Origin: an uncultured Clostridia bacterium
GTDB lineage: Bacteria; Bacillota; Clostridia; TANB77; CAG-508
DNA: 64,000 bases
Assembly (NCBI GenBank): GCA_944393125.1
Contig: CALXZB010000002.1
Location: 2,412-66,411, forward strand
Direction: 5' to 3'
Shown here: in pieces, positions 6,086 through 43,249 of the stretch
How positions within the stretch are numbered: position 1 is the stretch's first letter
How the letters are laid out: the number at the start of each line of letters is the position of its first letter
The notes under the pieces: generated by a model
What the model was told of the DNA's origin: nothing
Seen by the model: the letters and a program-made list of their open reading frames with translations, nothing else
Database searches by the model: none
Program-made: the position numbers and the translations under genes

Positions 6086-9000
6086 TTATATCACATATTT
6101 CTTTATTAAAAATATTCCAATAGCAATAATTCCTAATAATATTAAAATTAATTTAAAATATGTTTTTGCAGTACCTGTTGATATTACTAACATTACTTCA
6201 GCTATATCTATATCATCTTCTCCTTCTTTTTGATTATTAGGTGTTGAATCTCTATCAGGTACATTATATTCATTTTTATCCTCAGAAATTTCTACCATAT
6301 TTGTTTTTAATGCTAAGTTTTCAGAACCGTTTATCCAAGTTAATATAACTTCAACTGTTTTACTTTCACCTGGTTGTAATAATACATTTTCTAATTGTTT
6401 TGTAGAAACTACATTATTACCTTCATCTATCCAATTTGGATTATCATCTTGTTCAAATTTTAAACCTTCAGGTATGTAATCAGTTATTTCTGTTGCATAT
6501 CCTGGTATATCACCTTCATTTGTTATTGTAATTCCAAACCCAAATTTAACTGTAACTTCGTCTATTTTCTTTCTATGCAATTCTACTTTTACAATTGGTT
6601 CTGGATTTTCATGACCATTATATCCTGTTTTAGTAATTTTTTCTGTTCCATTTTCTTGCACTATAACTTTTGATACAAATTTTAATATTGATAAATCAAA
6701 ATATTCTACTTTTATATTTTCAATATCTTGATCATCTTCTCCATCATTCCATTTATCTGTTTGTGAATCTTTGTCTTTTATATGATTATTGTCTTTATCT
6801 CTATCATCAGATATTTGAGCATAATTTGTTATAATATACAAATTTGAATTTGGATCTTTTACTTTAAAAGATATTTTAATATCTCTGTAATATAATGTAT
6901 TTTGGTCAAATGCTGTAAGTAAATTATTTTTTCCATTTTCTTTTGACAAATATGTTGTTTTTACTTTTACAGCTTGTTCTGCATTTGCAGTTTCATTTCC
7001 GTTTTCATCATACATTTTCCACATATATTCTACATTTGTTGAATTTTCTGGCAAGTATTCTAAATATTCTGGAATATTGTCTGTTATTTCACTTGCATAT
7101 CCATCTATTTCACCTTCATTGTATATTCTTATAGTATATGTTACTATATCACCAACATGAACTGTTAAAGGTTCTTTAGTATGTTCATAAGAAATTACTC
7201 CATTTTCATTTTTTACTTGAGGGATTCTGCTTGTAATATCTTTATCTTGTACTTTTGTTATAAATTTTCTCAAAGCCAAATCAAATTCTTTCACATATAT
7301 TTTTTCAAAATCATCGTCATCTTCATTTCCTGGTACATATATATCATTTTCTAGTTCTTCCTTGTACTTTGGTAAATCTTCATCTTTTGGCAAATTTTTA
7401 TCAATGTTGTTAGACTCTGAATCTACATCTTTAGAATATACTATTTCACCATATTTGTATTCAGAAATTTCAGCTATATTAGTTATATTTTCTTTTGGAA
7501 TTGCATTTTCTAAAATCTTACATTCTATTTGTATATCTTCATAGTCTATTTTTGCTCCATCAAATGCTAGTAATTCTTTGTCTTTTAAATATGTAGTTAT
7601 TGCTATTCTTCCATCTTCTGCTATTTTCCACTTATACTTATTATTAATTGTACTATTTTCTACATATTCTAAGTATGGTGGTAAATAATCTGTTATTTCA
7701 CTTGCATATCCATCTATTTCTCCTTCATTATAAACCCTTATAGTATATATTATTTTATCTCCTGATTTTAAGCCTACAGGTACTTTTGAGTGATTATATA
7801 TAGCAGTTGTTCCTGTTTCATTTTGTAAAGGTGTTATATCTACTTTTGGCTCTCTTGAGTTTTCTAATACTTCATTATTTATTAATGTTATAAATTTTCT
7901 TAAGCTTAAATCAAATGTTTTTACACGTATTTTTTCAAAATCATCATCATCTTGTTGTCCTTCATAAAAATATTCACTATTTGATAATTCAGTTGGATTA
8001 TCATCATTTCCTTTATAATCTTCCATATTATCTTTTGATACTTTTGGATAATTTGCTGGTTCCGAGTCTATATCTTCTCCTATTTGTGTTGTTATTATTC
8101 TATTATCTTCTTTATTATATGCTTCATTTATCCAAGCAACATTTGTTAATATATTACTTTCATTAGCTTTTGCTGTATAAACTACTTTACATTTTAGCTC
8201 TATTGTTTCACTATCTAGTGTTCCATTTGTGTATGGATTTAGCTCTTGAGCTGGAGTTTCTTCTGTATTAATAATGTCAAGTATTACTTTATTTGTTGAG
8301 ACTTCATATGTTATTTTATATGTATTTTTCTTAACTCCATTTCCGTCTTTTGATATTACAGAAGTAGTTGGCATACATATTAATCCTTCTGGTAATTGAT
8401 CTATTATTTGACTAGCATATCCTGCTTTTTCACCTTCATTATATATTGTTATTGAGTAAGTTATAATATCATTTTCTTCAACTTCTAAAGGATCTTTTCT
8501 ATGCTTATATGTAGCTGTATTTTTTGTTTCAATTGTTTTTGTATCTATTTGTGGTACTCTTGTATTCATTCCTAATGTTGTAATTTCATTATTATTTATT
8601 TTTGTAATATACTTTCTTAAAGCTAAATCAAATGTTTTTTCTGGTATATGTGTATTTGTTATTATATATTTATTTTCATTATTTGAGTCTTTTTTTATTG
8701 TTGATGTATACCCTTTAACTGAAACTTCTTCAACTTCATAATTTATGTCTATTCCATTTTCTTTTACTGGTAAATCTGTAAAAATGTAATTCCAATTATT
8801 TTCTTTATTTAAAGTTGCTGATTGTACTATTTGATCTCCATTTTTTATATTTACTATTATTGATTGTGGTCTTATCTTATCATAGTCACTTTCGTCATCC
8901 CATATTTTTTCTACTTCAATACTCTTAGTTTTGGTTTCATGTTTATTTGTTATTATATATTCTGGTATAGAATTTGAATTATTATTTTTTACTATCATTG

Positions 9001-11659
9001 AAGTATAACCTTCAATTTGTTCAAGTTCTTTTACACTATATTCTATAAGTTCATTATTTTCTTTTTCTGGTAAATTTGAGAAAGTATATTGCCAATTATT
9101 ATTACTATTTAACTCAACATTATCATATTCTTCACCGTTTTTTAATAAAACTATTGTTATTTTATTTGGTCTTATTCCATCTTGGTTATTCTCATCTTCC
9201 CAAATTTTTACCACTCTTAAACTAGTTGTTCCTGGTACATATGTATTTGTTATTACATACCCTGTTTCCATGTCTCCTGTTGTTTCTGAACTATATTGAG
9301 CTGGTACTTCACTTTCTTGTACTGTGTATTCTATTTCTGTTCCATTTTCATATTTAGGTAGATTTTCAAATGTATGTTTCCAATTATTTGTAGTATTTAG
9401 TCCTATATTGTCATATTCTGTTCCATCTTTTAATAAATTCACTATTATTTCATTTGGTCTTATTCCATCTTGGTTGTTTGCATCTTCCCATATTTTTTCT
9501 ACTGATACTTCTGTTGTTTCTGGTATGTATGTATTTGTTATTACATATCCTGTTTCCATGTCTCCTGTTGTTTCTGAAGCATATTGAGATGGCACTTCAC
9601 TTTCTTGTACTGTGTATTCTATTTCTGTTCCATTTTCATATTTAGGCAAATTCTCAAATGTGTGTTTCCAAGTATTTGCATTATTTAGTTTTATACTGCT
9701 TTGTTCTTCTCCATTTTTTAATAACTTCACTGTTATTTCATTTGGTCTTATTCCATCTTGGTTGTTTCCATCTTCCCATATTTTTTCTACCTTTACACTT
9801 GTTGTTTCTGGTACATATGTATTTGTTATTACATATCCATTTTCCATATTTCCTGTTGTTTCTGAAGCATATTGAGATGGCACTTCACTTTCTTGTACTG
9901 TATATTCTATTTCTGTTCCATTTTCATATTTAGGTAAATTTTCAAATTTGTATTTCCAACTATTTGTAGTATTTAGTTTTATGCTACTTTGTTTTTCTCC
10001 ATCTTTTAGTAAATCAATTGTTATTTCATTTGGTCTTATTCCATCTTGGTTGTTTCCATCTTCCCATATTTTTTCTACCTTTACACTTGTTGTTTCTGGT
10101 ACATATGTATTTGTTATTACATATCCATTTTCCATATTTCCTGTTGTTTCTGAAGCATATTGAGATGGCACTTCACTTTCTTGTACTGTATATTCTATTT
10201 CTGTTCCATTTTCATATTTAGGTAAATTTTCAAATTTGTATTTCCAACTATTTGTAGTATTTAGTTTTATGCTACTTTGTTTTTCTCCATCTTTTAGTAA
10301 ATCAATTGTTATTTCATTTGGTCTTATTCCATCTTGGTTATTCGCATCTTCCCATATTTTTTCTACTGTTACTCCTATTAATTCTGGCTCTGCTATAAAT
10401 TCCATTGAAGTTGTTACTTCCTTTTTAGAAAGTTCTGCAATTGGCTGTTCTGCAGTTAATTTTATCTGTCCATTTTCTTCTGTTCCTTGTAGCCATAAAT
10501 TTTTATTTGCAGTATAATGAACTATTTGTATTTGGACATTTACTTTTTTTCCTATATTTTTATCTATTTTTATATAAAATCCATCTGGATTTCCTATAAA
10601 GTCATTAATACTTGCATTTTCAATTATTGTGCCATTAGAATCTGTAAATTCATAATTAGTAGAAGCTATTTCTATATTATTTTCATCAGTTAATTTCATT
10701 GAAATTTTATATAAGAAATCATTATTTTTTTCTATTACTAATGGTCCAATTATGTAATTTGAATCTTTAATATTAGTATTTATTTTATATTTTCCATTTT
10801 CTTCTATTAACTTGTCTGTATTTACTTCTATTGGTGGATTATCTATTGTGTAATTATTCTCAGCAGTATATAAATTTGCTCCTTCTTTAGCTGAACTTAT
10901 TAAATAATTATATACATCTTCAGCCATGTGTCTTCTTGAATCACCTAGTATATTATAGCTTATTGCATCTGTTGTTATATTTAACCAATTTTGGCTTTCT
11001 GTTTTGTCAAAATCTCCTCCATTTGTAAAAGTCCATATTGCAACCCTTTGAATAGCCATTATATCTGCTTCTGTAAGAGCTTCTTCTCCATAAATTTTTC
11101 CAGTAGTTGAATTATAATATTCAACTGTCCCTTCATATTCATCTTTCATAACTCCAGCTTTAGCAAGATATTCATCTTTATTTTCTTCTCCCATTATGTA
11201 CATATTGTCTAAAAGCCATAATATTTCTCTATATTGATTTCCATTTACATCTAATAATTCTTTTACTATTTCATCTTCATCATTATCATTTTCAACTAAT
11301 TTACTTAATAGTTCTTCCCTTCCTTGTTGTAAATCAAAAACTATATTATATTCTAGTATTGGACTAGAACCGGTAAAATTACCCCATGATGCACCATAGT
11401 CACCTTTTAGACAATATATATCTTTTTGTGTACTACTTAATCCTCCTTGTAAAGAATCGTATGTACTCATATGCCAAATATATTTTCCTTTATTTGTTGG
11501 GTCACCTATTCCATATCCTATACCATTTGGATTTAGTGCAGATAAATTAGTATATAATTTTCCTGTTCCTGCATATGTTGAATTTGAATAAAACATCCCC
11601 ATTAATATTGCTGATATTACTCCTATTACTATTAGTATGCTTATGACTTTTTTTCTCAT
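6086..11659 (-). CDS. Giant cell-surface adhesin (signal peptide; DUF11-type FDL[AS]LRKFIT repeats; six Cna-B-type repeats; C-terminal hydrophobic anchor with KK tail)
   Basis: The 1857-aa ORF has an N-terminal signal peptide (MRKKVISILIVIGVISAILMG). It has repeated FDLSLRKFIT...YTIRVYNEGEIDGYASEITDYLP modules (DUF11 / conserved repeat domain style). It has six ~96-aa VEKIWED.NNQDGIRPNEI...ENLPKYENGTEIEYTV units (Cna-B / SpaA-like isopeptide-fold style). The C-terminus reads VISTGTAKTYF + TM + KKYVI. Confidence 0.8.
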   Translation of the reverse strand: MRKKVISILIVIGVISAILMGMFYSNSTYAGTGKLYTNLSALNPNGIGYGIGDPTNKGKYIWHMSTYDSLQGGLSSTQKDIYCLKGDYGASWGNFTGSSPILEYNIVFDLQQGREELLSKLVENDNDEDEIVKELLDVNGNQYREILWLLDNMYIMGEENKDEYLAKAGVMKDEYEGTVEYYNSTTGKIYGEEALTEADIMAIQRVAIWTFTNGGDFDKTESQNWLNITTDAISYNILGDSRRHMAEDVYNYLISSAKEGANLYTAENNYTIDNPPIEVNTDKLIEENGKYKINTNIKDSNYIIGPLVIEKNNDFLYKISMKLTDENNIEIASTNYEFTDSNGTIIENASINDFIGNPDGFYIKIDKNIGKKVNVQIQIVHYTANKNLWLQGTEENGQIKLTAEQPIAELSKKEVTTSMEFIAEPELIGVTVEKIWEDANNQDGIRPNEITIDLLKDGEKQSSIKLNTTNSWKYKFENLPKYENGTEIEYTVQESEVPSQYASETTGNMENGYVITNTYVPETTSVKVEKIWEDGNNQDGIRPNEITIDLLKDGEKQSSIKLNTTNSWKYKFENLPKYENGTEIEYTVQESEVPSQYASETTGNMENGYVITNTYVPETTSVKVEKIWEDGNNQDGIRPNEITVKLLKNGEEQSSIKLNNANTWKHTFENLPKYENGTEIEYTVQESEVPSQYASETTGDMETGYVITNTYIPETTEVSVEKIWEDANNQDGIRPNEIIVNLLKDGTEYDNIGLNTTNNWKHTFENLPKYENGTEIEYTVQESEVPAQYSSETTGDMETGYVITNTYVPGTTSLRVVKIWEDENNQDGIRPNKITIVLLKNGEEYDNVELNSNNNWQYTFSNLPEKENNELIEYSVKELEQIEGYTSMIVKNNNSNSIPEYIITNKHETKTKSIEVEKIWDDESDYDKIRPQSIIVNIKNGDQIVQSATLNKENNWNYIFTDLPVKENGIDINYEVEEVSVKGYTSTIKKDSNNENKYIITNTHIPEKTFDLALRKYITKINNNEITTLGMNTRVPQIDTKTIETKNTATYKHRKDPLEVEENDIITYSITIYNEGEKAGYASQIIDQLPEGLICMPTTSVISKDGNGVKKNTYKITYEVSTNKVILDIINTEETPAQELNPYTNGTLDSETIELKCKVVYTAKANESNILTNVAWINEAYNKEDNRIITTQIGEDIDSEPANYPKVSKDNMEDYKGNDDNPTELSNSEYFYEGQQDDDDFEKIRVKTFDLSLRKFITLINNEVLENSREPKVDITPLQNETGTTAIYNHSKVPVGLKSGDKIIYTIRVYNEGEIDGYASEITDYLPPYLEYVENSTINNKYKWKIAEDGRIAITTYLKDKELLAFDGAKIDYEDIQIECKILENAIPKENITNIAEISEYKYGEIVYSKDVDSESNNIDKNLPKDEDLPKYKEELENDIYVPGNEDDDDFEKIYVKEFDLALRKFITKVQDKDITSRIPQVKNENGVISYEHTKEPLTVHVGDIVTYTIRIYNEGEIDGYASEITDNIPEYLEYLPENSTNVEYMWKMYDENGNETANAEQAVKVKTTYLSKENGKNNLLTAFDQNTLYYRDIKISFKVKDPNSNLYIITNYAQISDDRDKDNNHIKDKDSQTDKWNDGEDDQDIENIKVEYFDLSILKFVSKVIVQENGTEKITKTGYNGHENPEPIVKVELHRKKIDEVTVKFGFGITITNEGDIPGYATEITDYIPEGLKFEQDDNPNWIDEGNNVVSTKQLENVLLQPGESKTVEVILTWINGSENLALKTNMVEISEDKNEYNVPDRDSTPNNQKEGEDDIDIAEVMLVISTGTAKTYFKLILILLGIIAIGIFLIKKYVI
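8670..10400. repeat. Tandem 288-bp repeats (six units; four nearly identical) encoding the Cna-B-type domain repeats of adhesin 1
   Basis: Plus-strand antisense ORFs recur at 9324, 9612, ~9900 and ~10188 with a 288-nt period. Two protein repeat units are 100% identical. On the coding strand these are repeats 1-6 of the adhesin. Confidence 0.75.
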
Positions 11660-11819: not shown

Positions 11820-14800
11820 TTATATTATAAATTTTTTTATCAATATAATTCCTATTGCTATGATTGCTAATAGTCCTAATACTAATGTAAAATATGTTTT
11901 TGCACTACCTGTTGATACTGCTAATATTACTTTTGCTATATCAATATCATCTTCACCATCTTTTTTGTTATCCGGTGTTGAATCTCTATCAGGTACATCA
12001 TATTCATTTTTATCTTCAGATATTTCTGCAGTATTTGTTTTTAATGATAAATTATTCGAACCATTTATCCATGTTAATATAACTTCTACTGTTCTACTTT
12101 CACCTGGTTGTAATAAAACATTTTCTAATTGTTTTGTAGATATTACATTATTTCCTTCATCTACCCAATTTGGATTATCAGCTTGTACAAATTTTAGTCC
12201 TTCAGGTATATAATCCGTTATTTCTGTTGCATATCCTGGTATGTCTCCTTCATTTGTTATTGTAATTCCAAATCCAAATTTAACTGTAACTTTGTCTAAT
12301 TTTTTTCTATGTAATTCTACTTTTACAACTGGTTCTGGATCTTCATGTCCGTTATATCCTGTTTCCGTTATTGTTTCTTTTCCATCTTCAATAACAATTA
12401 CTTTTGTTACAAATTTTAATAGCGCTAAATCAAAATATTCTACTTTAATATTTTCAACATCTTGATCATCTTCACCATCATTCCATTGATCTGGTTCTGA
12501 GTCTTTATCTTTTACAGGATTATTGTTTTCATCTCTATCATCAGATATTTGTGCGTGATTTGTTATAATATATGAATTTGAGTTTGGATCTTTAACTTTA
12601 AATGCTATTTTTATATCTTTATATGACAATGTATTTCCATCAAATGCATTTATTAAATTATCTTCGTTGTTTTCTTTTGACAAATATGTTGTCTTGACTT
12701 TTACTGCTTGATCTACATTTTCAGTTTCATTTCCATTTTCATCATACATTTTCCACATATATTCTACATTTGTTGAATTCTCTGGTAAATATTCTAGATA
12801 TTCTGGAATATCATCACTTACTTCATTAGCATATCCAGATATTTCTCCCTCATTATATACTCTTATTGTATATATTACTATGTCCCCTACATGAACAGTT
12901 AAAGGTTCTTTTGTATGTTCATAAGAAATGCTTCCATTTTCAATATTAGGTTGTGGTATTCTGCTTGTTATTTCTTTATCTTGAACTTGTGTTATAAACT
13001 TTCTTAATGCTAAATCAAATTCTTGTATATATATTTTTTCAAAGTCATCATCATCTTCGTTTCCTGGCACATATTCTTTGTCTATTTCTTCATTTTTATA
13101 TGATGATAAGTCTTTATCTGCTGGTAGATAACCTTTGCTCTCCATATTATCTGCTGTTGAATCTATATCTTTTACTACTGTATTTCCATTATACCTATAT
13201 TCAGATATTTCAGCTATGTTTGTTTGATTTTGTTTTAGTGCTGCATTTTCTAAAACTATACATTCTATTTTTAAATCTTCATAATCTAATGTATTTCCAT
13301 CAAATGCTTTTAATTCTTTATCTCTTAAATATGTTGTTGTAACAATTCTTCCATCTTCTGAAAGTTCCCACCCATAATTATTGTTTATTTCGCTATCTTC
13401 TATATATTTCAAATATGGTGGTAAGTAATCTGTTACTTCACTTGCAAAACCATCTATACTTCCTTCATTATATACTCTTATTGTATATATTATTTTGTCT
13501 TCAACTTGAACAGATACTGGTTTTTTAGAATGTTTATATATTGCAGTAGTATCAGTTCCATTTATTAGATTTGAAACATCAACTTCAGGTTCTCTTATAT
13601 ATTTTCCATCTTTATCTTTTAGTTCTGTTCCATTTACTGAAGTAATGAATTTTCTTAAGCTTAAATCAAAATATTGTAATTGAACTCTTTCTATATCTTG
13701 ATCATCATCTGTATCAATCCATACATCAGGTGTTGAATCTATATCTTCTATATCTTTATTTCCATCTTCATCTGTATGTTCAGATATTTGTGCATAATTT
13801 ACTAATACTCTATTTGATGTTGCTTGCTCTACAACTTTACATAGCACTTGAGCATCTATATAATCAGGATTTTCTTCGTTTATTTCTCCTTCTTTATTTA
13901 GTGCTTTTAATAAATTTGCTTGATAATTAGCATCTCCTTTTTCAGCATTTAATTCTGCTCCTTGTCCTTTTGCAAACCATGTTGTTGTTATAACTTGTCT
14001 TCCATCATCATCTATTCCATCTAAACTCCAAATACCATTATATTCTTCATTGTTTACAACAAATTCTAGTCCTATTGGTAATGTATCTTTTATTTTGCTA
14101 GCATATCCATTGATTTCACCTTCATTATATACTCTTATTGTGTATAACACATAATCTCCTGGCTCAACAGTTAGTGCAGCTTTATCATCTTGTTTATATG
14201 TAATTTTTCCTGTTTCAGCATTTATTGATTGTACAACCGGCGCTCTCAAATATACTCCATCTTTGTTTCCTGTATCTGTTACATATTCTCCATTTTCAAC
14301 TATTTGATCTTTACTTATTGCTGCTATATACTTAAATAATGCTAAATCAAATACCTTTTCTATTGGATTTATAACTACTTTTTCGAAGTCATCATCATCT
14401 TGTTGTCCTTTGTAGAAATATTCATTTTGTGATAAGTCTTCAGGATTTTCACTATTTCCTTTATAGTTTTCCATATTAGATTTATTTACAACTGCATTAT
14501 TTATTTGAGGTAATGTATATGGTTCTGAATCTCTGTCTTCTCCAACATTAGTTGTTATTGTTTTATTATCTTCTACATTATAGGCTTCATTTATCCATGC
14601 TACATTTGTTAAAATAATTTGTTCTTTTGTGTCTGCTTCTTGTGCTACTTTACACTTTATTTCTATAACTTCATAATCTAAGCCATTTGAAATTGTATAA
14701 GGTTGTAAACTTTGTGCAATATTTTCAGTTGTATTTACTATTTTTAATACTATTTGATTTGTAATTGTGTTATATGACACTGTATATGTATTTTTTGCAT

Positions 14801-16403
14801 TTCCATTTTTATCTTTTGAAGTTATTGTTGATGTTGTATTTGTTGACCTTATTAGTCCTGTTGGTAATTGATCTATTATTTCTGTTGCATATCCTGCTTT
14901 ATTTCCTTCATTATAAATTCTTATTTGATATGTTATTTCATCTCCATCTTCTACTACAACTGGATCTTTTCTATGTTTATAAGTTGCTGTTGTTCCTGTA
15001 AGAAGTGTATCTAAAGATATATTAGTTAAATTTCTTGCATTTGGTATTTCTTTTTCATTACCATTTTTATCATTTAATCCAACTATATATTTTCTTAGTG
15101 CTAAGTCGAATTCCTCTGGTTTAGATATTAGATTTATAATTGTTTCTTGTTGTTGAGGAATAATTTCTACAAGTGGTTGCTCAGAATTTAATTTTATTTC
15201 ATCTTCATTTTCTGTTCCTTGTAGCCATAATTTTTTTGAAATTGTTTTATATGATATTTTTATTTCAACATCTATGCTTTCTACTTTTTCTCTAGCTACT
15301 TTTATATAAAATTTTCCTTCTAATTTTTCTATTTCATTTTTTTCTTCATTTGTAAATACATAATCTGTATTATATTCTAGTTCTTTGCCTGTTTGATCTT
15401 TTACTATTATATCTAAATTATAATTTTGTTCATTATTTTTTTGAAGTTCTATTGGTCCTATAAAATAATTTTCTCCATCTCTGTTTGCATTTATAATATA
15501 TTTATCATTTTGTATAGTCAAACCTGATGTATTTATATTTATTGGTGCCTCATTTAATTGATAACCGTTTTCAGCAGTATATTGGTTAGCACCATTTTCT
15601 GCACCTGCTATTAAAAATTTATATAAATCCATTCCTATTGCATTTCTAGATTCACTTATTGTTTTTAATTGACTATAATTTGTCCCATCAGTTGTTACAA
15701 ATAGCCAAAGATCTTCTGCTGTTTTATCATAATTCCCACCATTTGTGAAATACCATATTGCCATTTTTTGAATTGCAATAATGTCAGCTCCTGTTAATTC
15801 TTCTCCTTGAGGGTAATCAATTTCTACTCCGTTCTCTATTTTGTAGTAATATTTTTCTCCTTCATATTCATATGAAAAGATTCCTATATTTTCTAAATAT
15901 GAATCTATATCATCTCCTGATATATATGCATTATCTAAAATCCATAATATTTGTTTATATTGTTGCCCTTCAGTGTTTAATAAATCTTTTATAATTTCAT
16001 CAGCATCATTACCATTATCTTTTAATTTATTTAATAAACTTTCTCTATCAGCTTGTAAGTCATAAGATAAATTATATTCAAGTATTTCATCTTCTTTTTG
16101 TTCAGTAAACCATGTTTGTCCATAATCAGCTTTTACACAATATAATTCTTTTTGTTCTTCACTTGTAGGTCCTGTCAAGCTATCTTGTACAAGTATATTC
16201 CATATATATTCACCTTTATTACTTGATCCTCCAACTGTTGGGTTTGGATTTCCATTTCCATATCCAACTCCATTTAAGTCTGTCTTTGATAACTTAACAT
16301 ATAATGGTTCATTTTCTACTCGTGCATATGTAATTAATTGATTAGCAATAATTGTTCCTAATACTAATAATATAATTAATATGCATATTACTCTTTTTTT
16401 CAT
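11820..16403 (-). CDS. Second giant surface adhesin, tandem paralogue of 6086..11659 (DUF11-type repeats, no Cna-B array)
   Basis: The 1527-aa ORF starts with a signal peptide (MKKRVICILIILLVLGTIIA). The N-terminal ~420 aa and C-terminal ~600 aa are collinear with adhesin 1 (e.g. YCVKADYGQTW vs YCLKGDYGASW). The C-terminus reads AVSTGSAKTYF + TM + KKFII. Confidence 0.8.
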   Translation of the reverse strand: MKKRVICILIILLVLGTIIANQLITYARVENEPLYVKLSKTDLNGVGYGNGNPNPTVGGSSNKGEYIWNILVQDSLTGPTSEEQKELYCVKADYGQTWFTEQKEDEILEYNLSYDLQADRESLLNKLKDNGNDADEIIKDLLNTEGQQYKQILWILDNAYISGDDIDSYLENIGIFSYEYEGEKYYYKIENGVEIDYPQGEELTGADIIAIQKMAIWYFTNGGNYDKTAEDLWLFVTTDGTNYSQLKTISESRNAIGMDLYKFLIAGAENGANQYTAENGYQLNEAPININTSGLTIQNDKYIINANRDGENYFIGPIELQKNNEQNYNLDIIVKDQTGKELEYNTDYVFTNEEKNEIEKLEGKFYIKVAREKVESIDVEIKISYKTISKKLWLQGTENEDEIKLNSEQPLVEIIPQQQETIINLISKPEEFDLALRKYIVGLNDKNGNEKEIPNARNLTNISLDTLLTGTTATYKHRKDPVVVEDGDEITYQIRIYNEGNKAGYATEIIDQLPTGLIRSTNTTSTITSKDKNGNAKNTYTVSYNTITNQIVLKIVNTTENIAQSLQPYTISNGLDYEVIEIKCKVAQEADTKEQIILTNVAWINEAYNVEDNKTITTNVGEDRDSEPYTLPQINNAVVNKSNMENYKGNSENPEDLSQNEYFYKGQQDDDDFEKVVINPIEKVFDLALFKYIAAISKDQIVENGEYVTDTGNKDGVYLRAPVVQSINAETGKITYKQDDKAALTVEPGDYVLYTIRVYNEGEINGYASKIKDTLPIGLEFVVNNEEYNGIWSLDGIDDDGRQVITTTWFAKGQGAELNAEKGDANYQANLLKALNKEGEINEENPDYIDAQVLCKVVEQATSNRVLVNYAQISEHTDEDGNKDIEDIDSTPDVWIDTDDDQDIERVQLQYFDLSLRKFITSVNGTELKDKDGKYIREPEVDVSNLINGTDTTAIYKHSKKPVSVQVEDKIIYTIRVYNEGSIDGFASEVTDYLPPYLKYIEDSEINNNYGWELSEDGRIVTTTYLRDKELKAFDGNTLDYEDLKIECIVLENAALKQNQTNIAEISEYRYNGNTVVKDIDSTADNMESKGYLPADKDLSSYKNEEIDKEYVPGNEDDDDFEKIYIQEFDLALRKFITQVQDKEITSRIPQPNIENGSISYEHTKEPLTVHVGDIVIYTIRVYNEGEISGYANEVSDDIPEYLEYLPENSTNVEYMWKMYDENGNETENVDQAVKVKTTYLSKENNEDNLINAFDGNTLSYKDIKIAFKVKDPNSNSYIITNHAQISDDRDENNNPVKDKDSEPDQWNDGEDDQDVENIKVEYFDLALLKFVTKVIVIEDGKETITETGYNGHEDPEPVVKVELHRKKLDKVTVKFGFGITITNEGDIPGYATEITDYIPEGLKFVQADNPNWVDEGNNVISTKQLENVLLQPGESRTVEVILTWINGSNNLSLKTNTAEISEDKNEYDVPDRDSTPDNKKDGEDDIDIAKVILAVSTGSAKTYFTLVLGLLAIIAIGIILIKKFII

Positions 16404-17848: not shown

Positions 17849-17922
17849 GCAGGTATAGTTTAGTGGTAAAACATAACCTTGCCAAGGTTGAGTTACGGGT
17901 CCGATTCCCGTTACCTGCTCCA
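17849..17922 (+). tRNA. tRNA-Gly (anticodon GCC)
   Basis: The gene is 74 nt. The 7-bp acceptor stem gcaggta/tacctgc is followed by discriminator t and an encoded CCA. The anticodon loop ttGCCaa, the D-loop agtttagtggtaa and the T-loop ggtccgattcc are all present. Confidence 0.85.
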
Positions 17923-17937
17923 GCTAATTTATTAAAT

Positions 17938-18011
17938 GGCGACATAGCCAAGTGGTAAGGCACGAGTCTGCAAAACTCTGATCCCCGGTCCGAATCCGGG
18001 TGTCGCCTCCA
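17938..18011 (+). tRNA. tRNA-Cys (anticodon GCA)
   Basis: The gene is 74 nt. The acceptor stem ggcgaca/tgtcgcc is followed by t and CCA. The anticodon loop is ctGCAaa. The T-arm is ccggtccgaatccgg. Confidence 0.85.
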
Positions 18012-22712: not shown

Positions 22713-22759
22713 TTTATACCATTCCTTTCCATTTATTAGTATAATATTTTTTAGAATAT

Positions 22760-24076
22760 TTATTCAATTCCTATAGTAATTAATTTGTCAATATATTCTG
22801 CCATAAATATAGGTATATTTAATATTTTACCACTTTTATCTAAATTTCTTGCTGAAAACCTAACAGAAATTTTATTTTCATTCAATTCATTAAATTTTGT
22901 TAAACTTACATTGTTTATATTTTCGCTCGACTTAACCTCTATAGGTATAATTTCATTTTTATGTTGTATAATAAAATCTATTTCGTGCCTATCAAACACA
23001 TAGTAATTAGGCTTGTTTTCAAATTTGAACATCAACATATTTAATATAAAATTTTCCGTTAATGCTCCTTTAAATTCCTCAAATAATTTATTTCCTTGAA
23101 TAACTATTTTAGAATCTAAATTTGCTTTTCTTCTTAATAATCCTACATCTAACATATATAATTTAAAACTACTTAAATCTGTGTATGCATTTAGTGGAAA
23201 ATCTGGTTTAGTTACATTAAATATTTTATTTACAATATTTGAATTATTTAACCAATCTATTGCATCTTCATATTCTCTTGCTCTAGCTCCTCTTTTAGCA
23301 ACTTGGTACAAAAATTTTTTATTTTCCCTTGCAAGTTGTGATATTATACTTTCCCATATAATAGATATTTTTGATTGCATATTTGTAGAATCTGTGTGTT
23401 TTCCAAAATCATCTTCATAGCCTCTTAAAATTTGTTTTTGTATTCTATTTACTTCTTCTATATCTTTTGTTGATACCCACGTTTGTACTACTTCTGGCAT
23501 GCCTCCTACTATAAAATATGATTTTATTTTTTCGCTTAATTGATTAAATATCATATCTGGTATTTTTTCAATTTTAGTTATTGATTCCATATATTCTACT
23601 AAATTTTTTTGATTATCTGCCAACAAAAATTCTGTAAATGTCATAGGATACATTTCTAAATATTCTACTTTTCCTACAGGAAATGAAGTATGTGATAATT
23701 TAATTCCAAGCAAGCTTCCCGCACAAACTATATGATACTCATTAGCTTCTTCTTGAAAGTATTTTAATGAATTTAATGCATCTGGACATTCTTGCACTTC
23801 ATCAAATATAATTAATGTTTTACCTGGTTTTATTGCTTTTCCTGTTGCAAATACTAATTGTTCTAGTATTCTTTTGGGATCCTTTGTATTTGCAAATAAT
23901 TCTTTAAGTGTTTCATCATGATCAAAGTTAAAATAGGCTATATTTTCGTATTCTTCTTTTCCAAATTCTTTCAATATATATGTTTTACCAACTTGTCTTG
24001 CACCTTTTAATATTAAAGGCTTTCTATCTATTCTATTTTTCCATTCAATTAGTTGTTCTTTTATATATCTACGCAT
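22760..24076 (-). CDS. AAA+ ATPase with a C-terminal DUF4143 domain (COG1373-type predicted ATPase)
   Basis: It has a Walker A motif (GARQVGKT) and a Walker B motif (LIIFDEVQ). The C-terminal region resembles DUF4143. The start is taken at MRRYIK (AAGAGG 8 nt upstream) rather than the GTG of the ORF track. Confidence 0.75.
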   Translation of the reverse strand: MRRYIKEQLIEWKNRIDRKPLILKGARQVGKTYILKEFGKEEYENIAYFNFDHDETLKELFANTKDPKRILEQLVFATGKAIKPGKTLIIFDEVQECPDALNSLKYFQEEANEYHIVCAGSLLGIKLSHTSFPVGKVEYLEMYPMTFTEFLLADNQKNLVEYMESITKIEKIPDMIFNQLSEKIKSYFIVGGMPEVVQTWVSTKDIEEVNRIQKQILRGYEDDFGKHTDSTNMQSKISIIWESIISQLARENKKFLYQVAKRGARAREYEDAIDWLNNSNIVNKIFNVTKPDFPLNAYTDLSSFKLYMLDVGLLRRKANLDSKIVIQGNKLFEEFKGALTENFILNMLMFKFENKPNYYVFDRHEIDFIIQHKNEIIPIEVKSSENINNVSLTKFNELNENKISVRFSARNLDKSGKILNIPIFMAEYIDKLITIGIE

Positions 24077-24378
24077 TGAAATCACCTCTTTGTATTATAT
24101 GTGTATTTATATAATATTATACACCTGTATTCACATTTTTGCAAGTTTTTCAAGATGTTTTATCACACTTTTTCAATTATTTTTCTATATTTTATCACAT
24201 TTTTGTTTTTTGAAACTTTTGATAATTTCACACATATTTCCTATCTTATATTTAATTTTAGACTAAAGCTTGTTTAATTAAGCAAATCTCTACCTGCTGT
24301 AATCAACGTGTAACAATTTTGCTTAAAAATTAGAGGAAAAGCACCTTTTAAAATCTATCAAATGCTTTGTTTTATTCT

Positions 24379-24423
24379 TGGTTGCGGGGGTAGACTCGAA
24401 CTTACGACCTTTGGGTTATGAGC
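24379..24423 (-). pseudogene. 3' half (about positions 31-76) of an initiator tRNA-Met-like gene. It is a tRNA remnant; no intact 5' half is present.
   Basis: The minus-strand sequence is gctcataacccaaaggtcgtaagttcgagtctacccccgcaacca. It has a CAT anticodon loop, a GGTCG variable/T-stem junction, a TTCGAGT T-loop and a CCCCGCAACCA end. This parallels the E. coli tRNA-fMet 3' half (…GCTCATAACCCGAAGGTCGTCGGTTCAAATCCGGCCCCCGCAACCA) as recalled from memory. The T-stem has a 1-nt deletion. The upstream 31 nt cannot form acceptor or D arms. Confidence 0.55.
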
Positions 24424-24683
24424 AAAACCTAACCACTTTTTGGAAGTTTGTGAAAATTAGACTTTTTGTTGGTATTTCAGTATTTATAAAATTTTTTATA
24501 CACAAAATATTTATGCATTTTTTGAGAAAATTTTACCCAATGTTTACCCAATTTGTATAGTATTTCTGTTCTAGTATTTTAGACTTTTGTAATGATTTTC
24601 AAAAAATTATTGGTGTTGTTTAATCTTAAATATTTTAAAAGAGGGCATCCTAAATAGGACACTCTCTTTATTTTTATTAATTA

Positions 24684-24854
24684 TTAAAATTTTCTTTTTC
24701 TAGCAGCCTCTGATTTTTTCTTTCTCTTTACACTTGGTTTTTCATAATGTTCTCTTTTACGAACTTCTTGAAGAACCCCATTTCTTGCACATTGTCTTTT
24801 AAACCTTTTTAGTGCATCTTCTATATTTCCATTATTAACTTTAATTTCTGACAT
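24684..24854 (-). CDS. rpsU: 30S ribosomal protein S21
   Basis: The translation is [56 protein letters not shown] (56 aa). GGAAGGAGGGG lies before the ATG. The ORF-track N-terminal extension is rejected. Confidence 0.9.
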
Positions 24855-24980
24855 TAATATTCCCCTCCTTCCGGCGTTTAGAACACTGTATGTGGGATTT
24901 TCCATCTCCTATATACGCTAATTATTATACATTATTTGGATATAGGTTGTCAAGCATTTTAGGAAATTTGTTTCGCTATT

Positions 24981-37713: not shown

Positions 37714-37880
37714 TTTCGTTTATTTTCTTCTTCGCCCTCAGTTCCAGTTGTTAATGTGACTTAATAATAAACTGTATTTTCAGGTTTTTTAGCAACAAAG
37801 TCAACTTCTAATTCATCATATTTTCCTATGAAAAATATAATTCCAGACTATGCATTACATTTGAATTTTAGAATGTCTTA

Positions 37881-37950
37881 TAAAGTTTACAAATTATTCA
37901 CATAAAATTATAGTAATTTGACAATATTTATGATATACTATTTATAAATT
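37881..37950 (+). promoter_or_regulatory. Promoter/operator repeat copy A. It has a 41-nt core identical to copy B, contains the TTGACA and extended -10 TGaTATACT elements, and has an imperfect inverted repeat tacaaatta/taatttga.
   Basis: The 41-nt stretch taaagtttacaaattattcacataaaattatagtaatttga is identical at 37881-37921 and 38690-38730. The next 28 nt are ~80% identical. It lies 20 nt upstream of the P1 ATG. Confidence 0.5.
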
Positions 37951-37969
37951 TAAAAGAGAGGAGAATATT

Positions 37970-38182
37970 ATGTCAAAAGTAATAGACAGAATGCAAAAGA
38001 TTGTTTCTGAACTTCCTCAAGATTACTTTGACAACATGGATGAATATGCAACAGTAGGCGCACTTATTGATTTATATTTAAAGAAATATGGTGAAGATGA
38101 AACAACTTTAATTCCAGGTACAAATACACATATGAATTATGAATATTTTAAAAATCTTTATAATAAGTTTAAAAAAAATTAG
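37970..38182 (+). CDS. Small protein P1 (70 aa), paralogue of P3
   Basis: It has an RBS (AGAGAGGAGAA). It shares the pattern MS..ID....K.I.SLP.D...........KKY.E with P3. Confidence 0.5.
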   Translation: MSKVIDRMQKIVSELPQDYFDNMDEYATVGALIDLYLKKYGEDETTLIPGTNTHMNYEYFKNLYNKFKKN

Positions 38183-38194
38183 GAGGTTAAAAAT

Positions 38195-38383
38195 ATGTTT
38201 TTTTTACAAAATGCATTAAAATCAATTAATTTACAAAATGATTCTTTATATGATTTTCTTTATGATATGGTCTTATTTATAGGATTACAAAAAAGTGAAG
38301 AAGATATTAAAAATGGTAGAGTTATGACTATTGAAGAATCAAAGGAAAGGATGAAAGTTACTTATGAATATCTTGATATCTGA
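38195..38383 (+). CDS. Small protein P2 (62 aa), paralogue of P4. Its C-terminal motif G..xT.EE is typical of TA antitoxin tails.
   Basis: AGGAGG lies 8 nt before the ATG, which is 12 nt after the P1 stop. It has YDFLYDMVLFIGLQKSEEDIKNGRVMTIEE, which compares with P4's YDCLYNLYVLLGIVKGVNEINLENGIPLDD. Confidence 0.5.
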   Translation: MFFLQNALKSINLQNDSLYDFLYDMVLFIGLQKSEEDIKNGRVMTIEESKERMKVTYEYLDI

Positions 38384-38689
38384 AAGTGCTCACCAAAATA
38401 TTAGTAATATATAATTATGTATTTTATTTCTGAAAAAGAAAATTTTATTAATATTCGTTATGTTTTAAGTGATAGGCAAAATCGTACTCAATTCTTAGAA
38501 TTACATAAAAAAGAAATTTTTGATATCATAAATTTTTTAAATCAATTTATTTAAATCCCGTTTTGAATAAATCCCAAAGTCACTACATATTTTCAAGTTT
38601 TTTCAAAATTATGCAAAAACTTTGTATTTTTGTATATTTTTTCATTTTAATAACTCAATTATAATATAGCATTCTTTTTATATCTCACT

Positions 38690-38759
38690 TAAAGTTTACA
38701 AATTATTCACATAAAATTATAGTAATTTGAGTATATTTATGTTATACTATTAGTATATT
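38690..38759 (+). promoter_or_regulatory. Promoter/operator repeat copy B (extended -10 TGtTATACT)
   Basis: See copy A. It lies 18 nt upstream of the P3 ATG. Confidence 0.5.
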
Positions 38760-38776
38760 TTAATGAAAGGAGGTTT

Positions 38777-39004
38777 ATGATGTCAAATATTAATGATAAT
38801 TTTATAAAAGCTATTGGATCGTTGCCTTATGACATTGATGAAGAAATAAAAATTAAAGATATCATTGTAATTCTTCAAGATGTAACAAAAAAATATATTG
38901 AACTTTTTGGAACTAACGATTTAAATGAAAATGATAAGACATGCATTCAAAGTATTTTGACTGCCCATACAGCACAAAATATATTGCAAGAAAAAAATAA
39001 CTAG
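38777..39004 (+). CDS. Small protein P3 (75 aa), paralogue of P1. It is the first gene of a P3-P4-ParE cassette.
   Basis: The RBS is AAAGGAGG. It starts MMSNINDNFIKAIGSLPYDIDEE. Confidence 0.5.
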   Translation: MMSNINDNFIKAIGSLPYDIDEEIKIKDIIVILQDVTKKYIELFGTNDLNENDKTCIQSILTAHTAQNILQEKNN

Positions 39005-39021
39005 AAAGGATTGATTTTAAT

Positions 39022-39243
39022 ATGAAAGAACCTAACGAAAAAATTCAAATAGAAAAAATTGTTGATATGCTAAAAAATTCAGAGCAAAATGTAACATTTT
39101 ATGATTGTCTTTATAACTTATATGTACTATTAGGTATTGTCAAAGGTGTGAATGAAATTAATTTAGAAAATGGTATTCCTTTAGATGATTTTTTGACAGA
39201 AAGAGAGGCTTTATATGAAAATTATAATAGAAAATCTAGCTAA
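39022..39243 (+). CDS. Small protein P4 (73 aa), the putative antitoxin partner of the downstream ParE/RelE toxin
   Basis: It lies immediately upstream of the toxin gene and overlaps it by 29 nt. Its C-terminal NGIPLDDFLTEREA resembles ParD/RHH-antitoxin C-terminal tails. There is no recognisable RHH N-terminus. Confidence 0.5.
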   Translation: MKEPNEKIQIEKIVDMLKNSEQNVTFYDCLYNLYVLLGIVKGVNEINLENGIPLDDFLTEREALYENYNRKSS

Positions 39244-39559
39244 AAAAGGACTCGATGATATATTTTGTTATAATATACAATATTCTATAGAAAATGCTAT
39301 AAATACCGATTATGCTATAACTGAATATATTAAAACTCTAATTACTTCCCCATATATTGGAAGATGCATTCCAGAGATGAAAAATAATCATTTTAGGGAA
39401 ATTATATATCAAAAGAATCCAAAATCTTCATATCGTATTATGTATTACATACATGATTCTAAAAATTCTATTCATATCTTTAATATTATGAATTCTAAAC
39501 AAGATTTTAATCATATTTTAACAATGCACAATTATTTCCAAAACTATTTTGAAATTTAA
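39215..39559 (+). CDS. ParE/RelE-superfamily type II toxin (114 aa)
   Basis: It has ENLAKKGLDDIFCY near the N-terminus. It has LITSPYIGRCIPEMKNNHFREIIY in the middle. It ends with SYRIMYYIHDSKNSIHIFNIMNSKQDF. These match the RelE/ParE pattern A..DL..I..Y ... P..G......R......YRIIY.v.......I.rI.H.kd. Confidence 0.7.
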   Translation: MKIIIENLAKKGLDDIFCYNIQYSIENAINTDYAITEYIKTLITSPYIGRCIPEMKNNHFREIIYQKNPKSSYRIMYYIHDSKNSIHIFNIMNSKQDFNHILTMHNYFQNYFEI

Positions 39560-39697: not shown

Positions 39698-42600
39698 TTA
39701 TTCATTTACTGTTTCAGTAACTACTTCATTATTTTCAGTTGAAGTTTCTTTTTCGTCTTCTCCTTCAACTTTAATTTGTACATCTTGATATACTTTCATA
39801 CCAGTACCTGCTGGGATAAGTTTACCAATAATTACATTTTCTTTTAGTCCAATTAAGTCATCTTCTTTACCTTTAATAGCTGCTTCTGTTAATACTCTAG
39901 TTGTCTCTTGGAATGAAGCTGCAGACAAGAAGCTATCTGTTGCTAAAGATGCTTTAGTAATACCTAGTAATACTCTCTTACCAGTTGCAATACGTTTTCC
40001 TTTTTCTTCAGCCTTTTTATTATTTTCTTCAAAGTCATACATATCAACTAAAGAACCTGGGAACATACCTGTATCTCCGCCATCTTCAACTCTAACTTTT
40101 CTAAGCATTTGTCTTGCAATAACCTCAATGTGTTTATCATTAATATCAACACCTTGGTTTCTATATACTTTTTGAACTTCAGAAATTACATATTCATAAA
40201 CTCCTTCTGGTCCTTTAATTGCAAGTATTTCAGCTGGATTTATAGAACCTTCTATAAGTGGTTGTGCAGCTTTTACTTCATCTCCATCTTTTACTTTTAA
40301 TTTTGAACCAAATGGTATAGTATATGTTCTAGAATCATCTTTAGATGTAACAATAATTTCTTTTTTCTTCTTTGTTTCAGAAATTTTAACTTTACCATCA
40401 ATTTCTGTTATAACAGCTAATCCCTTTGGTTTTCTAGCTTCAAAGATTTCTTCAACTCTAGGAAGACCTTGAGTGATATCTGCAACACCTGCAACACCAC
40501 CAGAGTGTATAGTTCTCATGGTTAACTGTGTACCAGGTTCACCAATTGATTGTGCTGCTATAATACCAACAGATTCTCCTATTGAAACTTCTTCTCTTCT
40601 TGCTAGTCCCATACCATAACATTTTTGGCATACACCATGCTTACTTCTACATCCAATTACTGAACGAACATAAACTTGTGTTATACCAGCATCTACTATT
40701 TGTTTTGCTATATTTTTATTTATCATTGTATTTGTATCTACAATCAATTCTCCTGTTTCAGGATGTACTATATCATTTAATGGGAATCTACCTTCTAATC
40801 TTTCTTCTAGTTTTTCAACTACTTGATTTCCATCTTTAATATCTTCTAGCATTAAACCTTCATGTGTTCCACAATCATGTTCTCTTACTATTATGTCTTG
40901 TGATACATCAACAAGTCTTCTTGTTAAATATCCAGAGTCAGCTGTTCTTAAAGCTGTATCTGATAAACCTTTACGTGCACCATGTGAAGAAATGAAATAT
41001 TCTAGAGCATCTAGTCCTTCACGGAAACATGATTTTATTGGTATTTCAACAGCTTTACCAGTAGTACTTGCCATAAGTCCACGCATACCTGCAATTTGTC
41101 TTAATTGGTTCATATTACCACGGGCTCCTGATTTAACCATCATATATATTGGGTTTAAGTCATCAAAATTTTCTTCCATTGCCTTACTTACATCGTTTGT
41201 AGCTTTATCCCAAATATTAACAACTGTTTTATATCTTTCATCATCAGTTATCAAACCTCTTCTATATTGGTTTCTAACTTTTTCTACTTGTTTTTCAGCA
41301 TCTGCTAATATGTCTTTTTTTGCAGCAGGTACTTCAACATCTGCTACTGAGAATGTAATACCAGCTAATGTTGAATATTTGAATCCTAATTCTTTAATAT
41401 AATCTATTACTTCTGCTGATTCAGTTAAGCCATGTTTTTCTATAACTTTATCTATTATTGTACCCATTGATTTTTTCATTACAGGAAAATCTATTTCATA
41501 TTGGAATGGATCTTCGTTTCTATCTATAAATCCTAAATCTTGTGGAATACCTTGGTTAAATATAATTCTACCAACACTTGTAGGGATTTTCTTTGATTTC
41601 ATTTCGCCATTTATCTCTTTTGTTATTTTTACGAAAATCTTTGCATGTATTCCTACTGCATTATTTTGAAATGCCATTATTGCTTCATCAGGATCTTTAA
41701 AATATTTTCCTTCTCCTAATTCACCATCTAATGTCATTGTTAAATAATAGCTTCCTAAAATCATATCTAGTCTTGGTACTGCAACTGGCTTACCATCTTG
41801 TGGTTTTAATAAGTTATTTGTAGCTAACATTAAATATCTTGCTTCCGCTTGTGCTTCTGGTGTTAATGGTAAGTGAACTGCCATTTGGTCACCATCGAAG
41901 TCTGCATTAAATGCTTCACATACTAATGCATGTAGTTTTATTGCTCTACCTTCTACTAAAACAGGTTCAAATGCTTGAATACCTAATCTATGTAATGTTG
42001 GAGCACGGTTAAGCATTACAGGGTGGTCTTTAATTACTTCTTCAAGTATTCCCCATACTTCTGGGCTTAATCTTTCTACCATTCTTTTTGCACTTTTTAT
42101 ATTATGTGCCATATGTCTTCCAACTAATTCTCTCATTACAAATGGTTTGAATAATTCAATAGCCATTTCTTTTGGAAGTCCACATTGATATATTTTTAGT
42201 TCTGGTCCTACAACAATTACAGAACGTCCTGAATAGTCAACTCTTTTTCCTAATAAGTTTTGACGGAATCTACCTTGTTTTCCTTTTAATAAATCAGATA
42301 AAGATTTTAAAGGTCTGTTTCCAGCTCCTGTAACAGGTCTTCCTCTTCTTGAATTATCTATTAATGCATCTACTGATTCTTGTAACATTCTTTTTTCATT
42401 TCTTACAATAATCTCTGGTGCACCAAGTTCAAGTAATCTTTTTAATCTATTATTTCTGTTTATTACTCTTCTATATAAGTCATTTAAGTCTGATGTTGCA
42501 AATCTTCCACCATCTAATTGCACCATTGGTCTTAAATCTGGTGGAATTACTGGTACAACATTCATAACCATCCATTCAGGTCTATTCCCTGATTTTCTAA

Positions 42601-43249
42601 ACGCCTCTACTGTGTCTAACCTTTTAACTAGTTTTGCTTTTCTTTGTTCACTAGCAGATTCTAAATCCTTTTCAATTTCTGCAGTTAATTTTTCTAAATC
42701 TATTTCTTCAAGTAATTTTCTTATTGCTTCTGCACCCATTTCAGCTTTAAATGATTTTTTACCATATTTTTCTTCTGCTTCATGATATTCTTTTTCATTT
42801 AAAACTTGAGCTTTTTCTAGTCCTGATGTTCCTTTGTCTGTAACAATATATGATGCAAAATATATTACTTTTTCAAGATTTCTTGGTGATATATCTAGCA
42901 TTAATGCTATTCTACTTGGAATTCCTTTAAAATACCAAATATGTGCAACTGGTGCAGCTAATTCAATATGTCCCATTCTCTCTCTTCTAACTTTTGATTT
43001 TGTTACTTCAACACCACATCTATCACAAACAATTCCCTTATATCTTACTCTTTTATATTTACCACAATGACATTCCCAGTCTTTTGTTGGTCCAAATATT
43101 TTTTCACAGAATAAACCATCTTTTTCTGGTTTTAATGTTCTATAATTTATTGTCTCAGGTTTTTTTACTTCACCTTTTGACCATTCTCTTATCTTTTCAT
43201 CTGATGCAATTCCTATTTTTATTTTGTTGAATATCTCTAATTCTTCCAT
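39698..43249 (-). CDS. rpoC: DNA-directed RNA polymerase subunit beta'
   Basis: The 1183-aa ORF has the zinc finger [21 protein letters not shown], the NADFDGDQM catalytic motif and overall collinearity with RpoC. Confidence 0.95.

Follow-up and report, generated by a model that had tools for sequence, protein, structure and literature searches.

A stranded tRNA-fMet 3' half beside a DUF4143 ATPase gene in an uncultured Clostridia bacterium, read as a degraded and relocated attR-type junction

In the genome of an uncultured Clostridia bacterium, a piece of a tRNA-fMet gene lies between rpsU and a gene for a DUF4143 ATPase, which raises the question of how half a tRNA came to stand there. The original prediction, made on the 64,000-nucleotide stretch of DNA that was analyzed here as a whole (the window), had left two origins side by side, a scar of an integrase that targets tRNA genes or the remnant of a decayed tRNA. 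We consider it likely, with a probability of roughly 0.8, that the 45-nt piece is a displaced tRNA-fMet 3' fragment within a degraded attR-type junction that was made elsewhere, was relocated, likely together with a block of DNA, and is now non-functional.

The piece occupies positions 24379-24423 on the minus strand and reads GCTCATAACCCAAAGGTCGTAAGTTCGAGTCTACCCCCGCAACCA, a 45-mer that corresponds to the anticodon-loop-to-CCA half of a tRNA-fMet gene, with the CAT anticodon within CTCATAA and CCCCGCAACCA as its 3' terminus; the identification made previously is borne out by the sequence and by a 44/45 match to the tRNA-fMet of the clade. The sequence directly 5' of it, GGTTAGGTTTT, contains neither a D-arm nor an acceptor strand, and from the 5' side of the tRNA only G31 is kept, in agreement with the claimed absence of a 5' half. 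Past G31, the bases upstream of the piece cannot supply the partner strand of the anticodon stem, which makes it a stranded 3' half. The original prediction had named a full-length tRNA and a simple multi-copy repeat as the findings that would speak against it, and neither was encountered. ARAGORN called only a tRNA-Gly and a tRNA-Cys in the window (17849-18011) and no functional tRNA-fMet cloverleaf at the scar, and an Rfam search of positions 24000-24750 returned no tRNA even at E≤10, only noise with E>3. The 45-mer is present as a single copy in the 64-kb window when up to 3 mismatches are tolerated and was matched by 0/100 shuffles, which, together with its 44/45 identity, leaves no credence for a chance resemblance or a dispersed simple repeat. 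The gap in which it lies (24077-24683) had been described as free of open reading frames, which holds apart from three spurious-looking plus-strand ORFs of 58-60 aa, one of which is the antisense of the tRNA piece.

When one genome per species was searched with a degenerate pattern of the 3' half, at least 119 loci were obtained, mostly in metagenome-assembled genomes of uncultured gut Clostridia (L010-L128). All 119 copies listed have one base more than the window copy, and two of them have two more. Their T-stem reads GTAAG…CTTAC in nearly all cases, and the 3' strand of the window's T-stem reads CTAC, so that one T is missing. The single-nucleotide T-stem deletion noticed in the first reading is real, since the related copies carry the extra base and the deletion was found again in L002, L004, L005 and L006, four independently made metagenome assemblies from this species. 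There was no 44-nt version of the block among the 119 matches listed, the deletion-bearing variant had 0 matches in JGI metagenome contigs and the window's exact 45-mer had 0 matches in IMG/VR. With one copy in the window and the deletion variant absent from both collections, the behavior of a dispersed repeat or MITE was not observed.

The copies are scorable at 115 of the 119 loci listed, the remainder being cut by the end of a contig. Around the block, a complete tRNA-fMet gene with the 5' half CGCGGGGTGGAGCAGTTGGCAGCTCGTCGGG was found in 63 of these 115 copies and a stranded half in the other 52. Stranded tRNA-fMet halves thus make up nearly half of the block copies listed in the species representatives, which makes this tRNA a heavily frequented hot spot of integration in uncultured gut Clostridia. 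The similarity to the tRNA ends exactly before CTCATAA in 39 of the 52 stranded halves listed and one base earlier, as in the window, in 7 more; the half in the window, which begins at G31/C32, therefore breaks as 39-46 of the 52 do. A break that recurs at one precise position in the anticodon loop is a signature of site-specific recombination, not of random decay. In IMG/VR, the exact block occurs as a stranded half on five contigs as well, three of which have an integrase alongside it.

Both flanks of the half were informative. The parts of the junction, all on the minus strand, are as follows.

24424-24572, minus strand: remnant of the P arm, the island side of a tRNA-fMet-integrating element, delimited by BLASTN and alignment with L085, L030 and L086
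24532-24551, minus strand: direct repeat TTGGGTAAA-CA-TTGGGTAAA, putative arm-type integrase binding sites
24379-24423, minus strand: identity block O, the tRNA-fMet 3' half, which begins with G31 and the anticodon loop, ends at CCA and has lost one T from the 3' strand of the T-stem
24250-24378, minus strand: B', the chromosome-side flank of tRNA-fMet, delimited with L057, L056 and L037 and containing a decayed terminator hairpin at 24337-24368

When the gap was compared with the related loci by BLASTN, the 150 nt upstream of the half turned out to be homologous to the arm that lies upstream of stranded halves there; the match to L085 extends over 206 nt including the block with 78% identity (E=1e-40), and L030 and L086 match too. 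The homology of this P arm is moderate (75-80%, in AT-rich DNA). Its TTGGGTAAA doublet is located at -129/-118 in the window and at -140/-129 in L085, with TTGGGG variants in L030 and L086, and from this arrangement we regard it as a pair of putative arm-type integrase sites. The same doublet is also found downstream of the block, at +140/+151, in six loci (L042, L047, L066, L070, L103 and L111), five of which (L042, L066, L070, L103 and L111) have homologues of the int86 integrase at +304 to +438, the sequence of L047 ending about 255 nt past the block. A search for the arm doublet in IMG/VR gave 0 matches. On the other side of the half, the 115-130 nt downstream of CCA are homologous to the post-block flank of L057 (80% over 163 nt, E=5e-32), L056 and L037. 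L057 carries a tRNA fragment; L056 and L037 each have an intact tRNA-Met(CAT) with no integrase adjoining. Significant homology of B' stops about 115-130 nt past CCA, and the distal 40-60 nt toward the edge of the ATPase cassette are not significantly similar. The genes that flank tRNA-fMet in L056 and L057 have no homologues in the window, and the junction segment had no match among GenBank phages. The order of element arm, identity block and native tRNA flank makes this an attR-type junction.

An enzyme that could make such junctions is encoded close to the block in related genomes. A protein of about 304 aa with a Phage_integrase domain (PF00589) and a SAM-like N-terminal domain is encoded near the block in about 40 of the 119 loci listed, with the gene on the opposite strand at a distance of 190-440 nt past the block, after intact tRNAs and stranded halves alike. 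In 26 loci among those listed it follows directly after a stranded half, a layout that suggests tandem elements or attP forms that were assembled as such. In L085, L086, L030 and L019, a conserved 97-aa gene without a Pfam match is located beside the arm, on the other side of the stranded half. Behind this gene follows the cargo. That of the island in L085 (2683-7052) comprises AAA_21 and RloB genes and a gene for a 782-aa protein without a Pfam match, and that in L086 (2471-5090) a DNA methylase gene and one for a 358-aa protein of no assigned family, so the cargo of these tRNA-fMet islands appears, from its predicted domains, defense-like. The IMG/VR contigs with block and integrase, taken together with the loci in metagenome-assembled genomes, indicate that several families of elements use this segment of tRNA-fMet as their attachment core. 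As stated in the first reading, no integrase is encoded in the window; neither a homologue of the int86-type integrase nor one of the 97-aa arm gene was found there, nor was an integrase among the genes called within about 9-10 kb on either side in L001 and L002. There is likewise no second copy of the block and no intact, regenerated tRNA partner in the 64-kb window, and no fragment of the block with a length of at least 12 nt turns up elsewhere in it.

The window therefore lacks two features of an att scar, a direct-repeat partner tRNA and an associated tyrosine integrase, the latter of which is present at about 40 of the loci listed, and has three others, the canonical start in the anticodon loop, a 5' flank homologous to an element arm and a 3' flank homologous to the native downstream region of the tRNA. 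The reading as an att scar is supported, on sequence comparison, by a break point like that of the 52 halves listed, by the island-arm and native tRNA flanks and by the integrase at about 40 related loci. A tyrosine-integrase element would have recombined its attP with the segment of a tRNA-fMet gene from the anticodon loop to the 3' end, supplying a new 3' half to the gene and leaving the original 3' half stranded at its far end. About 150 nt of the island arm would survive from this element here, its integrase and cargo and the regenerated tRNA having been lost.

The 26 stranded halves listed that are directly followed by an integrase gene, in a tandem or attP-like arrangement, bring up the idea that the sequence downstream of the half in the window is the other arm of a second element instead of a chromosomal flank, with the ATPase cassette as what remains of that second island; the ATPase matches a candidate defense family (PDC-S01, see below), and defense genes are typical island cargo. 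We regard this as unlikely, since the downstream flank matches that of intact tRNAs without an adjoining integrase (L056 and L037), no integrase remnant is found in the window, the arm repeat that tandem loci have at +140/+151 is absent downstream of the window block, and the cassette is found alone elsewhere with the same boundaries.

We next consider where the degraded attR-type junction lies. The features that bound it, again all on the minus strand, are as follows.

24645-24662, minus strand: intrinsic terminator of rpsU, host sequence left of the insertion, kept in all same-species contigs
24272-24578, minus strand: strain-variable segment of about 305 nt, extending from the proximal P arm across O and through most of B', from an alignment of seven same-species sequences
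22760-24205, minus strand: DUF4143/AAA_14 ATPase cassette, consisting of a 129-nt promoter region and the ORF 24076-22760
22738-22767, minus strand: native promoter of the M16a peptidase gene, TTGAAT-18-TATACT, at the right edge of the insertion and overlapping the stop codon of the ATPase gene

Nine contigs (L001-L009) encode exactly the ATPase of the window and represent the same species with the same gene order. The corresponding loci of sister species were traced through M16a homologues of 78-87% identity in four lineages (L129; L130/L131; L132/L133; L134/L135). In all four, only 98-153 nt separate rpsU from the M16a gene that comes next, this interval contains neither a tRNA nor an ATPase gene, and the M16a promoter is kept directly after rpsU (L129, L130, L132 and L134). 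From this adjacency and the conserved promoter it follows that the sequence from about 24600 to 22760 is an insertion of about 1.9 kb, which consists of the arm remnant, the block, the tRNA flank, about 45 nt of further sequence and the ATPase cassette. The rpsU gene itself (24684-24905, minus strand) has a mechanically defined ORF of 73 aa; the gene callers start it at an internal ATG in all related contigs, giving 55-56 aa, and the Pfam S21 match spans residues 20-73.

It is this comparison that separates the two origins left side by side in the original prediction. A tRNA-fMet gene native to this position, its 5' half destroyed by insertion of the ATPase or by a deletion, would account for a downstream flank that resembles native tRNA-fMet flanks. 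With rpsU and M16a adjacent and no tRNA in four sister lineages, with a homologue of the island arm and not random sequence 5' of the break, and with the break at the canonical crossover position of the integrase, as in the 52 other fragments listed, we hold such a remnant to be extremely improbable. The att scar thus stands, backed by its break point, both flanks and the related integrases, and the decayed native tRNA does not.

Judged from the sister species, the scar is ectopic: its junction does not lie at a tRNA locus and would have been made elsewhere. A tyrosine integrase acting at a secondary site places target DNA to the right of the crossover. We considered integration at a secondary site here and rejected it, as the crossover would have left target DNA at the right and not a tRNA 3' half with its native flank. 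The presence of that half and flank right of the crossover implies that the junction was formed at a real tRNA-fMet gene and then moved. We infer this history from homology to other genomes: the junction would most likely have arrived, or have been relocated, in a DNA block from a genuine tRNA-fMet locus, and would now belong to the 1.9-kb insertion that separates rpsU from the M16 peptidase operon, with a mobile ATPase cassette immediately downstream. A target-site duplication was also considered, in the form of a copy of the M16a promoter after the rpsU terminator in a MAFFT alignment, and was dismissed as a chance product of AT-rich sequence, because 99-464 of 500 shuffles scored as well.

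Within the species, the scar and the ATPase gene part company. The 608-nt gap of the window is shared by L002, L004, L005 and L006, which are 99.3-100% identical to it there and have the 1-nt deletion too. In L001 and L003, the strain-variable segment (about 305 nt) is replaced by about 60 nt, and the ATPase gene and its promoter are unchanged; the scar is therefore dispensable and its presence independent of the ATPase. That L001 and L003 might retain a piece of the island arm more distal than the one in the window is weakly supported, by a local score of 43 where shuffles had a mean of 28.7 (sd 4.4) and a maximum of 46. The comparison of the locus among relatives that the original prediction had proposed thus yielded an ATPase gene that is absent from the sister species and, within the species, a scar that varies next to an unchanged ATPase gene. 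What is new relative to the first reading is that the scar is ectopic, that it shares an insertion of about 1.9 kb with the ATPase cassette and that it varies independently of the ATPase.

The scar has decayed as well. In L057 the T-arm folds and the 13-bp terminator hairpin has -21.7 kcal/mol (z=-2.6), whereas the T-arm of the window copy does not fold and its hairpin, with two mismatches, has -9.8 kcal/mol (z=+0.7). With a base of the T-stem lost, the terminator hairpin decayed and the segment deleted in part of the population, the scar is now non-functional sequence. The anticodon-loop part of the block is still intact and 44 of 45 positions are kept, and tandem arrays in relatives demonstrate that stranded halves are re-used as targets, so that the scar might be imagined as a still usable secondary attachment site, a pseudo-attB or landing pad for tRNA-fMet integrases. 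This appears quite improbable to us, given that nothing is integrated there in any of the seven same-species sequences and that the loss of the segment from L001 and L003 shows it to be dispensable.

The gene downstream of the scar (22760-24076, minus strand) had been described as a DUF4143 AAA ATPase. Pfam agrees, with full-length AAA_14 and DUF4143 domains above the cut-offs (110 and 109 bits), and DUF4143 is listed in the PD-(D/E)XK superfamily (PMC3424549). Measured against ATPases of the AAA_14 plus DUF4143 type (COG1373; PDC-S01), the neighbor thus has both domains in full, and its match to the PADLOC candidate family PDC-S01 is very strong (E=5e-173, 574 bits). An experimental anti-phage test of the PDC-S01 family was not found in the literature searched, and the ATPase is a computational candidate for a defense gene of this family, present independently of the scar. 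Its promoter, TTGCAA-17-TATAAT, lies at 24144-24116 (minus strand), in an upstream region of three to five tandem units of about 33 nt (TTGCAAAAATGTGATAAAA), the last of which forms the promoter. From 129 nt upstream of the ATG (24205) to the stop codon, the cassette is 83-87% identical at the nucleotide level to loci L136-L157. The same boundaries recur in solitary copies in three further chromosomal contexts, namely between genes for an FtsX-type permease and unknown genes, between those for a cation ATPase and mfd, and among VanW, tRNA-Lys(CTT) and ABC-F genes with variable Fic or Bro-N genes beside the cassette, which together with the window makes at least four unrelated contexts. The G+C content of the cassette is 24-27%, compared with 29-32% in the flanks of the other contexts, and no transposase, integrase or terminal repeats were seen at it. 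These properties fit a predicted single-gene module that is exchanged horizontally.

In L144, L145 and L150-L157 (for example L154, 5317-5503), about 110 nt separate the end of the ATPase gene from the 3' end of an intact, oppositely oriented tRNA-Lys(CTT), and beyond this tRNA there are genes for Fic, Bro-N or a 175-aa protein of no assigned family, varying by sample, in what resembles a small variable islet at a tRNA. Another copy of the ATPase gene, in L140, is followed at about 6440-6700 by a long inverted repeat (…CCCTGAAATACCTGTGAATGATATTTT … AAAATATCATTCACAGGTATTTCAGGG…) that is nearly perfect and may be a MITE-like insertion.

Sequence derived from a tRNA adjoins the cassette in two of the four contexts, the tRNA-fMet flank here and tRNA-Lys(CTT) in L144-L157. 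One could speculate that the cassette is itself a mobile element of small size, inserting into the 3' flanks of tRNA genes and able to take adjacent att DNA along, and that it would thereby distribute portable landing pads for islands that target tRNAs to new positions in the chromosome; we hold this to be very unlikely. No homologues of the ATPase were found at the 119 tRNA-fMet loci listed, a donor layout of tRNA-fMet followed by the ATPase cassette was found neither among these loci nor in JGI metagenome contigs, and a search of the JGI contigs for the block followed after 160-190 nt by the ATPase promoter repeat gave 0 matches.

The degraded attR-type junction has clear counterparts among known systems. 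Islander (PMC4383910) uses a regenerated target and a displaced fragment to mark the ends of an island, and the displaced 3' tRNA fragments described there at tyrosine-integrase islands and prophages have the same identity block from the anticodon loop to the 3' end, which places the scar with the anticodon-loop class of tRNA integration sites. As in its attR class, the arm is on the 5' side and the native tRNA flank on the 3' side, and related junctions come with a PF00589 integrase; unlike in that class, the scar is without partner tRNA, integrase and cargo, at a locus that never held a tRNA in the sister species. The nearest relatives are the tRNA-fMet islands of L085, L086, L019 and L030, to which the window is linked by arm homology over about 150 nt, by the TTGGGTAAA doublet and by the same block. 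Characterized by an integrase of about 304 aa, the 97-aa arm gene and a cargo of restriction-modification or AAA_21 plus RloB genes, these islands differ from the window, which keeps only the last approximately 150 nt, truncated before the 97-aa gene. Fragments of tRNA genes have been mis-called as tRNA genes in prokaryotic annotations (PMC9897764). Like those fragments, the scar in this bacterial genome is derived from a tRNA, incomplete and without function; unlike them, it is called by neither ARAGORN nor Infernal, so that it poses no annotation risk. The scar is an orphan attR-type junction of an ordinary, well-known class and involves no new mechanism. It marks past island traffic and its value is one of annotation: an att junction can come to lie at a locus where there is no tRNA gene, and island finders that pair tRNA fragments with tRNA genes would mis-handle such an orphan junction. 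The solitary, widely shared DUF4143 ATPase cassette is a more open question than the scar.

Two other regions of the window deserve mention. On the minus strand, 6086-11659 and 11820-16403 are adjacent giant paralogous ORFs of 1857 and 1527 aa that share segments of 75-88% identity, the larger one (6086-11659) with four to six tandem 288-nt repeats; their relatives have weak CLIPPER, LytR_C and SpaA matches, and both are, by these predictions, probably surface proteins. On the plus strand, 37866-39559 contains two pairs of small genes in succession, encoding 70+62 aa and 75+73 aa, with a 114-aa ORF after them. In front of each pair is a promoter region of 98 nt, and its two copies share 84% identity. 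These pairs are located just upstream of an ORF of 1183 aa (39698-43249, minus strand), which by eye we take to be the beta' subunit of RNA polymerase.
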